A model generated the notes under the pieces. The model did no database searches and was not told the DNA's origin. It worked only from the letters and a program-made list of their open reading frames with translations. Positions 2,118 through 11,551 of a stretch of DNA of 20,478 nucleotides are shown in pieces. The DNA lies in the UHGV virus genome UHGV-0138524. One strand, written 5' to 3'. The translations under genes were made by a program, and so were the position numbers. Every line of letters begins with the position of its first letter. Position 1 is the first letter of the stretch. This DNA comes from a virus.

Positions 2118-3122
2118 ATGGGCGCGGAGATTAATATTTTGGAAACTGATTTTAAAATAACCCTCGAAGGTTTCGCTACTGAGCAAGAAGCAAATAATAT
2201 CGGTAATTTCACACTAGAAGCTATCCGAGCTTTAACAAAAAATCTCAATCTTGATATCTCCAAATTAAAATGCGTGATTGTTTCCTATAACTTCAGTGAA
2301 GCTCTTCAAAAGGTAACATCCTCTTACCAACACAAATCCCCTAGTTCATTTACCAATAGCAAACAGGGCGCAGCCGTCGGGCAGTTAGTAACAAAAATTG
2401 GCAATGATGGGCTATGTGAAGAATATACCCTTGTGCTATCGATTGATTTTTTTGTTGAGCTTTTCAATGATGGTAGCTTCTTAAAACTGAAAGAAGAAGG
2501 ATACCTCGCAGTCATCCATCGCATTCACCATGAATTAGTGCACGTACATGAAAAAAACTTACTAACATGCTTAGCCCAAAACTTTACAGTCAACGAGTAT
2601 GGTAGCGCGCTTCTTATCTCAGCCACGCGTGCATGGTCTGAATATCTCGCTAATTACATGTCTTCGGGGTCTGCCCCTCAAGAAACTATCGATTTATTTT
2701 TAGAGAATCTTGACACTGTTGTAAATGAAGTATCTGACGAGATTGAAAAACTCATCTGGGGTTATAAGTACGGTAATATTTCTCTGAATGACATGTATCT
2801 TGAAGTAAAAAAACGTATCAGGCTAATCATCAACTCTTATGCTTATGCGATGGGTTATGTCCATTCTCTAAACATCAATATTAAAGAATACGATCCAAAG
2901 CTATCCCTTACACTATCCAACTCAAAGATAAGATATCAATTATCAGAATTAGGCATTGCTTTTCAGAATCTTTATGGGAAGTTTAATGACCAGCACATTA
3001 CAGGTTTTGGTGATTTTCGGGAGATAACAATAATCATTGATGAAATATTCAAGCAGTTTGGGCTTGTTTTAGAGTGTCCCGATTGGTCTGGCGACGGTGA
3101 ACTCTACATACATGTAAATTAG
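2118..3122 (+). CDS. Hypothetical 334-aa protein with an HExxH (zincin-like) motif; AT-rich accessory gene between the portal remnant and cos
   Basis: Long ORF in clearly AT-rich DNA compared with its neighbours; motif IHRIHHELVHVHE (HELVH) at about 2524-2550; no phage core gene recognised. Confidence 0.6.
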   Translation: MGAEINILETDFKITLEGFATEQEANNIGNFTLEAIRALTKNLNLDISKLKCVIVSYNFSEALQKVTSSYQHKSPSSFTNSKQGAAVGQLVTKIGNDGLCEEYTLVLSIDFFVELFNDGSFLKLKEEGYLAVIHRIHHELVHVHEKNLLTCLAQNFTVNEYGSALLISATRAWSEYLANYMSSGSAPQETIDLFLENLDTVVNEVSDEIEKLIWGYKYGNISLNDMYLEVKKRIRLIINSYAYAMGYVHSLNINIKEYDPKLSLTLSNSKIRYQLSELGIAFQNLYGKFNDQHITGFGDFREITIIIDEIFKQFGLVLECPDWSGDGELYIHVN

Positions 3123-8339: not shown

Positions 8340-8711
8340 TCAGTTAAGAGCGGTGCGCTGGTCGATGTAGCGACAATCAATCGCTTGTTGAGTCAGCTTA
8401 TCGCGCCATGCTTTTACATTTACGAGGGTTCGGCTTCGTTTAGCAGCTTCCTCTTTGTTGGAAAAGTCTTTGGTCGGAGCTTTGAGAAGGACTCCCTCAT
8501 CGAGCCATTGCCAGACCAGACGCTCGCTAACACCGCGAGTAGCGGCGAAGTCTTTCACAGTCATCGTGTCTGACATAGCGGAGCGAATCATTGTCTGTAG
8601 AGCTGGCAGCATGGCGGTAACGATGGCATCAAACTGTGTTGGGTCTAGCAGCACAGTTTGATTTTGTGAGTTTTGCGAGTCGTGCGTCGAGATTGATTTT
8701 GCATCTGACAT
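8340..8711 (-). CDS. Cox/Apl-like helix-turn-helix regulator or excisionase, first gene of the early lytic operon
   Basis: 123 aa with an HTH-like stretch MTVKDFAATRGVSERLVWQWLDEGVL; faces the repressor gene; the true start may be an internal Met. Confidence 0.45.
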   Translation of the reverse strand: MSDAKSISTHDSQNSQNQTVLLDPTQFDAIVTAMLPALQTMIRSAMSDTMTVKDFAATRGVSERLVWQWLDEGVLLKAPTKDFSNKEEAAKRSRTLVNVKAWRDKLTQQAIDCRYIDQRTALN

Positions 8712-8823: not shown

Positions 8824-9670
8824 TATGTCTAAAAATGATGTTAATGCGTCTGCCGCATTGGAACGTGTCCTTTCTGCATACGGCTTTAAGCAGCAAAAGG
8901 AACTAGCCGAAAGGCTTGGCATACATGCAAACAACGTGAGTAGCTGGCTTGCTAGAAACGTAATCCCTAGCAACGTTTTCGTTGAGTGTGCTCTTGATAC
9001 TGGAGCTGACCTGCGATGGCTAATTAATGGTGAGCTTGCAAATGCAAGATTTGAAGTGGTGAAAACTAAGCTTAAAGGTAAGCAACTCTATGATGAAATC
9101 ATGGCAAATGGAGGGAGGGCGGTTCTGCGTCGGATTCTCGATGCGTATGGTTTTACTCTGCAAAAAGAGCTTGGAGATTTATTAGGTATATCTTCCGGCA
9201 CTATAAGCACTTGGGTTAGACGCGATTTTTTCCCCGGTGACGTGGTTGTCACTTGCGCCCTTGATACTGGCGTATCGTTAGAATGGTTATCAACCGGAAA
9301 AGGCCAGATGCGTAACAGTAATGATGGTGAACCGGCAAATGCTTTAACGATTAGAAAGTGCCGCCTCGAGGCTGGCGAACTCAAAGATATCGGACGCTGG
9401 ACTCCTGATATATCTATGGTTCCATCAAATACTGATGATTTAGTGTTTATTGATGGTGTGAGCACATCTTGGCTTGTTGATAGTTCTAACTCGAAGATAG
9501 GAAATGGTCGCTGGCTTATTGGTATTGATGGCGCACTCGATGTTTTTGACGTAATCAGGTTGCCAGGCGGAAAGGTCAGGTTATCAAATAAGTCTGCTGA
9601 GTTTGAATGTAATATTTCAGATATCACACCATCAGGTGCGGTTATTTTTACTTTGGAAAAGCATGTTTAA
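8824..9670 (+). CDS. CI-type immunity repressor (186 CI-like) with a tandemly duplicated N-terminal DNA-binding domain
   Basis: From the internal ATG at 8824 (MSKNDV...); repeat 1 LERVLSAYGFKQQKELAERLGIHANNVSSWLARNVIPSNVFVECALDTGADLRWLINGE and repeat 2 LRRILDAYGFTLQKELGDLLGISSGTISTWVRRDFFPGDVVVTCALDTGVSLEWLSTGK; the track ORF starts at 8636, inside the upstream gene. Confidence 0.65.
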
Positions 9671-9679
9671 GGAGCAGTA

Positions 9680-10018
9680 ATGAAAAAGTTTATATTTGCG
9701 ATAGTCTGCATTGCACTTTCTTCCTCAGCCATAGCCGCTGAGAAGTTTAAAGAGATAGACGGCGCTGCATATGGTGACAAGTGGCCTCTAACCTTTGAAA
9801 AGGCAAAGGTATCATGTGTTAACCGTGCTTATGCTTTTGTGTATGACATCAAAACTGATGATAGATATCCTCTGAATGGCATGGCGGTAGATGCTGTTAA
9901 ATCAGGAAAGCTGGAGGGGTCTAACTTAGATGACGTATGGAAGGATGACCCTGAGTATGACGGCGTTAAAATTTCAATTTCACCGGTGATTGATGCCGCT
10001 ACAGCCCTTTGTAATTAA
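9680..10018 (+). CDS. Secreted or periplasmic small protein (DUF2511/YebY-like, assigned from memory); moron between the repressor and int
   Basis: N-terminal signal peptide MKKFIFAIVCIALSSSAIAAE; GGAG 7 nt upstream of the ATG. Confidence 0.55.
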   Translation: MKKFIFAIVCIALSSSAIAAEKFKEIDGAAYGDKWPLTFEKAKVSCVNRAYAFVYDIKTDDRYPLNGMAVDAVKSGKLEGSNLDDVWKDDPEYDGVKISISPVIDAATALCN

Positions 10019-10042
10019 TTTTCTTTTAGCCTCGGTATCGCA

Positions 10043-11092
10043 ATGACTGTAAGTAAACAAAAAAGTGGAAAATGGTTGTGTGAACTCTATCCAAATGGTC
10101 GAGAAGGGCGGCGTATACGTCGGCAGTTCAATACCAAAGGTGAGGCCGAGGCATTTGAAGCATTTACCAAAAGCGAGAGTGAAGATAAGCCGTGGCTCGG
10201 CAAGAAAGAAGACCGCCGACGCTTAAGCGAGATTATTCAGCTTTGGCACAATTTGCACGGTCAAGCGTTAGTCGCCAGTAAGTCGAGATTTGCAAAGCTT
10301 CAAATCGTATGTAATGGACTTGGCGACCCGATTGCATCTCGCCTTACCGCGAAAGACTGGGCTCATTATCGTGACCGTCGATTACGTGGTGAAATAGACA
10401 ATGGTTATCATAAAGACCCCTCGAAATGGATCGCCAAACCTATAACCGTCAATCGCGAACAACAATACCTAGAAGCAGTGTTTAATGAGCTCCGCCGGTT
10501 AGGGGAGTGGAGCCTACCCAATCCACTTGATGGGATCCGAGTATTCAAAGAAGCTGAGAAAGAAATGTCCTGGCTAACTTTGTCTCAGCTCCCGGAGCTG
10601 TTTCGAGCCTGCGAGCAATACGGCAAAGAAGACCTCACCATGATTGTTAAGGTGTGCCTTGCAACCGGCGCTCGATGGGGGGAAGCGGAGAGATTGACCC
10701 GACCTCAACTTTCTCCATATAAACTAACGTTCACCAAAACCAAAGGTAAGAAGAATCGCACAGTTCCTATTCCTAAATGGCTGTACGACGAGTTGTCCGT
10801 ACGTCAAGGCAGAATGTTTAAACCCTGCTATCAGGAGTTTAAAAAGATGCTCAAACTAACGAATATTGAATTGACGGAAGGGCAGAAGACGCACGTTTTG
10901 CGTCATACTTTTGGTGCGCATTTTATGATGAACGGAGGGAATATACTGGTGCTGCAGAAAATTCTCGGACATGCCAATATTCGAGAAACAATGAAGTATG
11001 CGCACTTTGCTCCTGACCACCTTGAACAAGCTGTAACCCTCAATCCGTTATCGCTGTATGTTGGCGACAATGTGGCGGCAGAGGTTGCATAA
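10043..11092 (+). CDS. int: Tyrosine integrase (P2/186 family)
   Basis: 349 aa; N-terminus ...GKWLCELYPNGREGRRIRRQFNTKGEAEAFE; catalytic-region signature VLRHTFGAHFMMNGGNILVLQKILGHANIRETMKYAH. Confidence 0.85.
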   Translation: MTVSKQKSGKWLCELYPNGREGRRIRRQFNTKGEAEAFEAFTKSESEDKPWLGKKEDRRRLSEIIQLWHNLHGQALVASKSRFAKLQIVCNGLGDPIASRLTAKDWAHYRDRRLRGEIDNGYHKDPSKWIAKPITVNREQQYLEAVFNELRRLGEWSLPNPLDGIRVFKEAEKEMSWLTLSQLPELFRACEQYGKEDLTMIVKVCLATGARWGEAERLTRPQLSPYKLTFTKTKGKKNRTVPIPKWLYDELSVRQGRMFKPCYQEFKKMLKLTNIELTEGQKTHVLRHTFGAHFMMNGGNILVLQKILGHANIRETMKYAHFAPDHLEQAVTLNPLSLYVGDNVAAEVA

Positions 11093-11227
11093 CACTGCAA
11101 TTCACTGCATTAAAAATTACTTTAACTAGTTGTTTTATATGGTAAGTGTTTGTTCGCTGTGGGGTGTTAATAGGAGCGTCTTAACTGATAACGTATTCGC
11201 GCTACATCCAAAGCGTGTTATGAAACA

Positions 11228-11257
11228 AGGGGTTAGCGAATTGCTAACCCCTTTTTT
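11228..11257 (+). terminator. Rho-independent terminator downstream of int
   Basis: Stem AGGGGTTAGC / GCTAACCCCT with loop GAATT, followed by T6. Confidence 0.6.
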
Positions 11258-11310
11258 ATTGGTGGTGGCGGCAAATTGGCGGCAGAGGTTGGAGCGATGG
11301 CGACAGATAT

Positions 11311-11332: not shown

Positions 11333-11551
11333 TCAAAGCCAAAGTTGCTGTTGTTGGTTTCTGATGGGGTGTGGCGGAGCAGGATCAACAGTACCCGGTT
11401 TCACAATGAATCTTGATAGCGTCTCAAAAGTGATAAATGTACATCCGCAATTTATGTTCTGGCACTGGTGATAACGTTCTTTTGTTTCGGTGCTAAGGTA
11501 CCGGCTAGTGCGAGCATGTGCGGCGTTTTGGCATAACGGGCAGTGCATCAT
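11333..11551 (-). CDS. ogr: Ogr/Delta-family zinc-finger late-gene activator
   Basis: 72 aa MMHCPLCQNAAHARTSRYLSTETKERYHQCQNINCGCTFITFETLSRFIVKPG... closely resembles P2 Ogr; GGGGA upstream of this Met; the track ORF starts 15 codons further upstream. Confidence 0.85.
   Translation of the reverse strand: MMHCPLCQNAAHARTSRYLSTETKERYHQCQNINCGCTFITFETLSRFIVKPGTVDPAPPHPIRNQQQQLWL

Follow-up and report, generated by a model that had tools for sequence, protein, structure and literature searches.

We found that the 112-aa open reading frame at positions 9680 to 10018 (+ strand) of the window, by which we mean the whole 20,478-nucleotide stretch of viral DNA analyzed here, encodes a protein of the DUF2511/YebY family (Pfam entry PF10709), and that it is an optional cargo of the slot between the genes for the cI immunity repressor and the integrase (int) in PSP3-type 186-like phages. 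What the gene is, where it lies and that it belongs to the lysogenic operon make up the part of our explanation that is very probably correct. Its product is a predicted periplasmic protein. By analogy with another phage protein encoded at the same place, we propose that it may have a protective role in the lysogen, most likely superinfection exclusion, a reading that we advance tentatively, as plausible rather than probable.

The gene, its operon and its product

The gene extends from an ATG at 9680 to a TAA at 10016-10018 and follows the cI gene (8825-9670, + strand), the first gene of the lysogenic operon, whose coordinates come from an E. coli prophage of 100% identity, where the gene is annotated "phage repressor protein CI." The form of this repressor is unusual: it is a tandem protein, in which PF07022 matches two stretches (160 bits), giving two helix-turn-helix domains by Pfam, in addition to the CI C-terminal domain (PF16452). 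The cI stop codon is separated from the DUF2511 gene by 9 nt, and the Shine-Dalgarno sequence AAGGAG of the DUF2511 gene (9669-9674, + strand, as read from the sequence), which ends 5 nt before the ATG, overlaps this stop codon (TAA, 9668-9670), so that the junction reads ...CAT GTT TAA GGAGCAGTA ATG AAA AAG.... On the other side, the last gene of the operon, int (10043-11092, + strand), starts 24 nt past the DUF2511 stop codon and encodes a PSP3-type tyrosine integrase (PF24624 and PF00589). The three genes are all on the + strand, and cII (CP76) is on the opposite strand, with fil and the replication genes further out on that same strand, as read in the identical prophage.

The window has the gene order of the unintegrated phage, in which attP, ogr, and D come after int, and an identical copy of the phage is integrated beside yfiB in E. 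coli chromosomes. In an ungapped comparison with such an integrated E. coli prophage (L003), the two sequences were identical up to about 11186 and divergent beyond, which places the attP crossover at approximately 11170-11190. The terminator scan detected a strong terminator-like hairpin with a T-run after int (11227-11253, + strand; 12-bp stem with 6 GC pairs). As this hairpin lies beyond the attP crossover, it would end the operon in the unintegrated phage only, and we rejected it as the operon terminator in the prophage. Between cI and the end of int, the same scan found no strong-stem terminator-like site, and a simple scan revealed no + strand promoter upstream of cI. In the record of phage 186, the cI-int-orf69 stretch is annotated as the pL/pE lysogenic operon. 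The co-orientation of the three genes, the tight linkage to cI, the lack of a terminator before int and the annotation of the 186 operon all fit expression of the DUF2511 gene in lysogens, where one lysogenic (pL/pE-type) transcript would cover it along with cI and int and its own Shine-Dalgarno sequence would direct its translation.

We then analyzed the sequence of the protein. Residues 1 to 19 (MKKFIFAIVCIALSSSAIA, encoded at 9680-9736, + strand) correspond to a predicted Sec signal peptide, a call that we made by sequence rules and hydropathy rather than with a dedicated predictor. The N terminus, MKKFIFAIVCIALSSSAIA followed by AEK, contains two Lys residues and a hydrophobic core (best 8-residue Kyte-Doolittle mean, 3.45), and the predicted cleavage site after A-I-A has the A-x-A pattern, with small residues at -3 and -1, and no lipobox. 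The A-A-E-K junction is kept across 22 homologues, the signal peptide itself being variable, and residues 1 to 20 have a low pLDDT in the AlphaFold model. We rejected the possibility of a lipoprotein formed via Cys10, since A-I-V-C does not constitute a lipobox and the cysteine is absent from homologues. The claim of the earlier note that the lysogenic strand carries, in the interval from CI to int, a 112-aa ORF with a signal peptide and its own ribosome-binding site is thus borne out by the AAGGAG motif, the rule-based leader and the Pfam matches of the flanking genes. The protein would be exported by Sec and cut after Ala19 to release a mature domain of 93 aa (9737-10015, + strand; 10.2 kDa, pI 4.6), which has no His, one Met, and only two cysteines (Cys46 and Cys111).

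The match to PF10709 (67.8 bits versus a cut-off of 21) covers positions 5 to 87 of the 87 in the profile, and phrog_2950 matches over the full length of the protein (E = 1.8e-55). The sole solved relative found by sequence was E. coli YebY (PDB 7N0J; E = 3.8e-8, 34% identity over 79 residues). In this alignment, Cys46 and Cys111 correspond to the Cys48-Cys113 disulfide of YebY, and Trp35 corresponds to Trp37 (Trp71 in MlbQ). YebY has been established experimentally as a periplasmic, disulfide-bonded protein (PMC8689200), and a Cys46-Cys111 disulfide, formed by DsbA-dependent oxidation, may likewise lock the phage protein. The AlphaFold2 model (pLDDT 79) displays the fold that characterizes PF10709 in YebY and MlbQ, a four-stranded antiparallel sheet with flanking helices. 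With Foldseek, the model matched 7N0J (E = 8e-7; TM score of 0.71 by query and 0.84 by target) and, less closely, MlbQ (2MVO; E = 2e-3, identity of about 21%), and no other solved structure in that search scored better than E = 1. We obtained no match in the BFVD viral fold library at E<=0.001, in NCBIfam at E<=0.01, or among the PADLOC-DB 2.0 defense models at E<=0.01. Domain prediction, which the earlier note had suggested as a check, places the gene in the DUF2511/YebY/MlbQ family; it is not an anonymous signal-peptide ORF, and it is an orthologue of PSP3 gp28.

The cI-int slot in related phages

The gene and its arrangement were already known. The orthologue in Salmonella phage PSP3, gp28/orf28 (NP_958085.1), also has 112 aa and occupies the same position between cI and int; its record gave a similarity to a hypothetical protein of E. 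coli, and RefSeq now names the phage protein a DUF2511 domain-containing protein. Further orthologues of the PSP3 group are present in phages SW9, SI22, SEN1, Midge (whose record reads "putative periplasmic protein"), RCIP0057, and vB_EcoM-613R3. The proteins of this group are 63 to 84% identical to that of the window, from which they differ as other alleles, and they are accompanied by a tandem-HTH cI and by an int that is about 91 to 99% identical. The exact window protein is RefSeq WP_000713422.1 ("DUF2511 domain-containing protein"), found in E. coli prophages beside yfiB, and its 90% cluster, seen on 919 contigs, is named by its source "DUF2511 domain-containing protein [Salmonella enterica]." The presence of yebY homologues flanked by genes for a CI repressor and a recombinase had been pointed out in the 2021 YebY paper. 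Our literature search found no functional study of PSP3 orf28 or of any phage-borne DUF2511 protein, and the proteomics literature naming DUF2511 yielded one chromosomal YebY-type peptide and one bare accession, with nothing on the phage protein.

We looked into the distribution of the gene in several collections. Among 136 phage records with a 186-type CI, DUF2511 was present in 10 (7 phages) and absent from 126, and the 10 records were exactly those with an int at least 90% identical to that of the window (90.8 to 99.1%). Three different DUF2511 queries retrieved only the same 10 records, all from Peduoviridae, among 50,697 phage records. In phage 186 itself, cI abuts int, with no gene between them. 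All 80 DUF2511-anchored IMG/VR loci have the order tandem-HTH cI, DUF2511, int, with spacings of about 12 nt (from CI-DUF2511 tblastn matches) and 25 nt, the former being kept in nearly all 80; a second signal-peptide gene separates cI from DUF2511 in L007 and L018, and a bPH+SHOCT gene separates DUF2511 from int in four loci. The cI-DUF2511-int query was matched in 68 of 5,426 complete E. coli genomes, with a query coverage of at least 80% in 67. Our scan of genome contigs gave 3 loci, again all in the cI-DUF2511-int order, this low number being due to a collection with one genome per species.

To evaluate the slot in a way that did not presuppose DUF2511, we anchored the sampling on the integrase and obtained 54 loci in which a CI gene lies beside a related int. 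The slot contained DUF2511 in 17 of these modules, was empty in 16, and carried other cargo in 21. DUF2511 was present in 11/12 modules with an int at least 91% identical to that of the window and in 6/42 modules with an int 68 to 83% identical; one module, L099, has a tandem CI and an int that is 93% identical, with a 75-nt gap and no DUF2511. The comparison of related phages proposed in the earlier note thus gave a slot that is empty or otherwise occupied in 37/54 modules, in addition to the 10/136 records mentioned above. DUF2511 is therefore not universal in 186-like lysogeny modules, and on this point the earlier proposal of an accessory gene stands.

The 21 loci with other cargo represent nine families, eight of which have a signal peptide, a lipobox, or transmembrane (TM) segments. 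The commonest alternative is a signal-peptide family of roughly 130 aa with two cysteines (L108, L114, L119, L120, and the insert of L018), whose homology to DUF2511 or to the Glo protein of Vibrio phage K139 was rejected by comparison. We also found a DUF7424 lipoprotein, two further signal-peptide ORFs in L117, a signal-peptide family of 177 to 180 aa, a TM+WYL family, a TM-anchored protein of 241 aa, an 81-aa multi-TM protein, and one bPH_3+SHOCT protein, which is apparently cytoplasmic. Searches with Pfam and PHROGs identified only DUF7424, WYL, bPH_3+SHOCT, and PHROGs of unknown function among the alternative cargo, and no family in the slot was detectably related to DUF2511 or Glo. At the cI-int junction of other phages, vB_EcoM-813R9 carries the defense gene PD-Lambda-1, Klebsiella phage 4LV2017 carries a gene for a 349-aa unknown protein, and K139 has the order cI-orf2-glo-int, where orf2 contains BRCT and glo is annotated "periplasmic protein; involved in phage exclusion."

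In K139-like Vibrio phages, the interval from cI to int has been called a defense hotspot (Rousset et al. 2022, PMC9122126), and 8% of P2 defense systems are located between integrase and primase (Rousset et al. 2022, PMC9122126; NAR 2026, PMC13586616). The PSP3-type slot is like these P2-like hotspots in that it is a fixed interval between conserved genes with alternative accessory genes inside, but it contains mostly single small exported or membrane proteins rather than recognized cytoplasmic defense systems. From the make-up of its cargo, we view the PSP3-type slot as a cargo site strongly biased to envelope-targeted proteins. The junction appears to gather small exported and membrane proteins and would be a compact place to seek superinfection-exclusion or envelope-conversion factors. 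Both this cargo-slot pattern and the Peduoviridae-specific branch of DUF2511 merit follow-up.

The phage branch of DUF2511

When 1.84 billion representatives were scanned in full, 490 DUF2511 clusters were retrieved at E<=1e-3, in which the clade of the window forms a single cluster (57% identity), the next best reaching 35 to 40%. From the 14 best-scoring representatives, we examined eight further subfamilies and found all of them in P2/186/K139-like phage DNA, either immediately following an immunity repressor or close to ogr/D within the lysogeny region. They are located between a single-HTH 186-type CI and int (P0025), between a tandem CI and int (P0026, the L136 type), after a tandem CI in a decayed prophage (P0027), after a WYL+BRCT orf2-like gene, which is the position of glo (P0028), after an HTH repressor (P0031), after a 186-type CI (P0035), and beside gpD or ogr (P0036 and P0037). 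These contexts, together with the restriction to 10 Peduoviridae records, argue that the association with the lysogeny operon of this phage family is old and specific.

Within the clade of the window, alleles have been exchanged between otherwise similar modules. In L038 to L041, L049, and L050, CI and int are each about 98% identical to those of the window, and DUF2511 is 64 to 65% identical; in such allele-swapped loci, DNA identity falls from about 97% to 50 to 54% only inside 9700-10020 and then recovers. The profile of L022 shows that the segment for the signal peptide recombines separately. Since synonymous sites are saturated between alleles, we consider that old alleles were moved by recombination, rather than that the gene evolves fast.

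We then evaluated the constraint on the protein. Among 22 phage-clade sequences, Trp35 and Cys46 do not vary, and 21 have Cys111; the same three residues occur in the clade of YebY proteins from the yobA-yebZ-yebY (AZY) operon. We assembled 63 distinct coding sequences from related loci, most inter-allele pairs being saturated at synonymous sites, and calculated a median pairwise dN/dS of 0.108 for the mature domain, with a maximum of 0.45 (570 unsaturated pairs). The gene is real and under purifying selection. No positive selection was seen, all pairwise values being at most 0.45, a measure whose averaging over pairs makes it insensitive to such selection.

Morons, as defined by Hendrix, are extra genes inserted between conserved phage genes with their own promoter and terminator, and they often have a deviant base composition. 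In consensus scans, the DUF2511 gene was preceded by no promoter-like site, and the spacer that separates its stop codon from int contained no terminator-like site. The earlier note had called the gene a moron: it is accessory at this junction, as seen from the 17/54 modules that carry it and from phage 186, which does not, but it is without a promoter and terminator of its own in our scans. The idea of a recent insertion did not hold, given a GC content of 0.42 for the gene, matching the 0.44 of cI, the same order in 80/80 DUF2511-anchored loci, and the saturation of synonymous sites. The gene belongs to a known family and has long resided within the operon; it is not a freshly inserted anonymous moron.

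Possible roles in the lysogen

We propose that, in the lysogen, a small soluble periplasmic protein may bind an incoming component that crosses the envelope and thereby protect its host cell. The most likely form of such protection would be superinfection exclusion of related phages, like that attributed to the unrelated periplasmic Glo of K139. A protective or exclusion role is suggested by the other occupants of the slot, by the precedent of Glo, by the restriction of the branch to one phage family and by the shuffling of old alleles. Glo (NP_536629.1) is also a small signal-peptide protein, and in K139, which is P2-related, its gene is on the lysogenic strand, downstream of cI and directly upstream of int; moreover, the DUF2511 subfamily P0028 follows a WYL+BRCT orf2-like gene just as glo does. 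However, the two proteins belong to different PHROGs (7270 for Glo and 2950 for DUF2511), and hhalign gave a probability of 1%, with only the signal peptides aligned. We therefore rejected homology to Glo, and the analogy is one of position and topology only. Of the two activities that the earlier note gave as examples, envelope modification and exclusion, it is this positional analogy alone that makes us favor exclusion. Also arguing against exclusion are the lack of a PADLOC match, the maximum pairwise dN/dS of 0.45, with no positive selection such as an arms-race protein might show, and the fact that the only functional data for the family concern copper import (YebY) and lantibiotic self-resistance (MlbQ). 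If the exclusion reading is true, the soluble periplasmic proteins of the phage branch would form a new superinfection-exclusion family, an analogue of Glo of K139.

The functional data for YebY lead to an alternative that we judge unlikely, in which the phage protein would serve as an extra, constitutive YebY that damps copper import via the CopD-type YebZ of the host (with YobA), with an altered copper load, and possibly mar induction, in lysogens. YebY of E. coli (b1839, 7N0J), encoded by the third gene of yobA-yebZ-yebY, has in common with the phage protein the PF10709 family, a Sec signal peptide (predicted in the phage protein), a size of about 10 to 11 kDa, the disulfide cysteines, the Trp and the fold, at the 34% identity given above. 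Co-expression of YebY lowers YebZ-dependent copper accumulation, and YebY was proposed to act as a safety valve (PMC11923076); hosts belonging to E. coli, Salmonella, Klebsiella, and Enterobacter all encode the AZY operon. The context of the phage gene differs, however. It is optional, and we found no copC, copD, ABC transporter, or bacteriocin genes near it, its neighbors being phage genes, with cI and int next to it in the window and in 80/80 DUF2511-anchored loci. In sequenced phages, it occurs only in Peduoviridae lysogeny modules, which would be odd for a generic host-fitness gene. The mature phage protein is also devoid of His and contains a single Met.

Sequence conservation also sets the phage clade apart from the AZY clade. 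The two share 31% mean identity (31 to 34% for the window protein and E. coli YebY), and their internal diversity differs, with a mean identity of 63% within the phage clade versus 80% for chromosomal YebY across genera that overlap the same hosts. Conservation of 90% or more in AZY-type YebY (12 enterobacterial sequences) applies to 64 positions, of which the phage clade keeps 15 and has 15 fixed to a different residue; conserved residues specific to the AZY clade are mostly replaced. The window protein has no NCBIfam match at E<=0.01 and bears the RefSeq name "DUF2511 domain-containing protein," whereas chromosomal orthologues are mostly named "YebY family protein." By neither neighborhood nor orthologue-level conservation is the DUF2511 gene an orthologue of the yebY of the AZY operon. 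A recent capture of host yebY was also rejected, on the basis of the 31 to 34% identity and of the score of E. coli YebY, which at 36.6 bits is below the 43.1 bits of the 150th best representative cluster and hence more distant than over 150 other clusters. Further evidence came from a prophage-remnant copy that lies 3.5 kb from the host copD-yebY and is only 32% identical to that yebY gene.

A related reading, which we regard as rather improbable, takes the DUF2511 branch as a Peduoviridae-specific periplasmic effector expressed in lysogens, which would act as a decoy YebY on YebZ/CopD and throttle copper entry and thereby mar-dependent antibiotic tolerance. If this were true, carriage of a PSP3-type prophage would alter the copper and antibiotic phenotype of the lysogen. 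The phage branch offers a genetically simple test of the role of DUF2511/YebY, with one gene, one prophage, and scorable phenotypes.

It is similarly doubtful that the protein confers immunity in the manner of MlbQ, i.e., that in the periplasm it binds and neutralizes an antimicrobial peptide or bacteriocin that targets the envelope, which would amount to resistance against a toxin and not against a phage. MlbQ (2MVO/6QFP), the self-resistance protein of Microbispora against the lantibiotic NAI-107, shares with the phage protein the family, the fold (Foldseek E = 2e-3), and the place of the disulfide, and it is an extracytoplasmic protective binding protein (PMC8689200). The phage protein is small and acidic and is predicted to be secreted and disulfide stabilized, and the divergent alleles swapped between near-identical modules would suit ligand-specific immunity proteins. 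MlbQ, however, is a lipoprotein with a long linker from a Gram-positive bacterium, and its gene belongs to a lantibiotic cluster that also encodes ABC transporters; the phage protein has no lipobox and thus no lipoprotein anchor, its gene has neither ABC transporter nor bacteriocin genes nearby, and the identity between the two is only about 21%. In addition, no candidate ligand is known in Enterobacteriaceae, and the strict tie to one phage family points to a phage-related target.

Lastly, we consider it highly improbable that the gene functions within the lysogeny module itself, being needed, for example, for translation of int or for establishment of lysogeny, rather than a conversion gene: it lies between cI and int in 80/80 DUF2511-anchored loci, directly adjacent to both in nearly all of them, 67/68 matching E. 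coli genomes cover at least 80% of the cI-DUF2511-int query, and the 24-nt spacer contains no obvious Shine-Dalgarno sequence for int, but a secreted protein is an unlikely cytoplasmic regulator, and the slot is empty in L099 and fifteen further modules, holds unrelated cargo in 21, and is closed in phage 186, where cI abuts int.

Cargo between the repressor and integrase genes

In PSP3-related phages, the cI-int junction is a variable cargo slot. Besides DUF2511, nine families were found there, eight of which have signal peptides, lipoboxes or TM segments. This pattern was seen across the cI-int intervals of loci L103-L141 (IMG/VR), at about positions 2300-3000 in each locus, and also at positions 3570-3974 of L018 and 4355-4861 of L026. 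The slot of Escherichia phage vB_EcoM-813R9 (L005:4073-5749) encodes a protein of 558 aa, annotated as a "chromosome segregation ATPase," which matches the defence protein PD-Lambda-1 (E 3e-120).

The DUF2511 gene itself is exchanged in the manner of a cassette. Comparison of window positions 9700-10020 with L039, L049, and related loci revealed a DNA identity of only 50-54% for this gene, and the flanking cI and int proteins of these loci are ∼98% identical to those of the window. The break in another locus, L022, falls elsewhere, at the cI end and the signal-peptide segment (9600-9700).

Repressor types and DUF2511 subfamilies

The CI repressor of the window (281 aa, 8825-9670, plus strand) is of a tandem form, with two PF07022 helix-turn-helix domains followed by the CI C-terminal domain, whereas the CI gene of phage 186 has 579 nt and encodes a single PF07022 domain. 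This tandem type was the only neighbor found for the PSP3-type DUF2511 clade, and a single-HTH, 186-type CI precedes the distant DUF2511 subfamilies P0025 and P0035. In Klebsiella phage 4LV2017, a distant tandem CI (32% identity) is accompanied by other cargo.

The DUF2511 subfamily P0027 is represented in a decayed 186-like prophage (positions 857-4975 of L171/L172). Its DUF2511 gene is accompanied by a tandem CI, a bPH+SHOCT gene, and fragments of cII and of an integrase. This remnant is ∼3.5 kb away from the host's own copD-yebY pair (positions 1-483). A recent capture of the host yebY by the prophage was ruled out, because the two copies, host yebY and remnant DUF2511, are only 32% identical.

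Other genes of the lysogeny region

The apl/cox position of the window is occupied by a gene on the minus strand (8340-8711) encoding a 123-aa counterpart of PSP3 gp30, for which a Pfam search returned no match. Nilsson and Haggard-Ljungquist (2011) class PSP3 gp30 as a singleton with no relatives among the other Cox/Apl proteins. In phage 186, the extra gene of the lysogenic operon, orf69 (83 aa, L006:1158-1409), sits downstream of int and not before it, so that 186 and PSP3-type phages have their accessory genes at different points of the operon. We saw no signal peptide in orf69, and its sole domain match was a marginal PD40 repeat.

The int end and the attachment site

An exact 15-nt direct repeat, TGGCGGCAGAGGTTG, is present in two copies on the plus strand (0.01 matches expected by chance), the first within the final int codons (11073-11087) and the second past the attP crossover (11277-11291). 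These repeats may be arm-type sites for Int. The gene order around positions 11170-11260 is the unintegrated one, int-attP-ogr-D. Identity between the window and the E. coli prophage next to yfiB (L003, about 11350-11440) stops at about 11186, and the lysogen therefore has host sequence in place of the phage hairpin at 11227-11253. This host sequence beside yfiB has its own hairpin and T-run.
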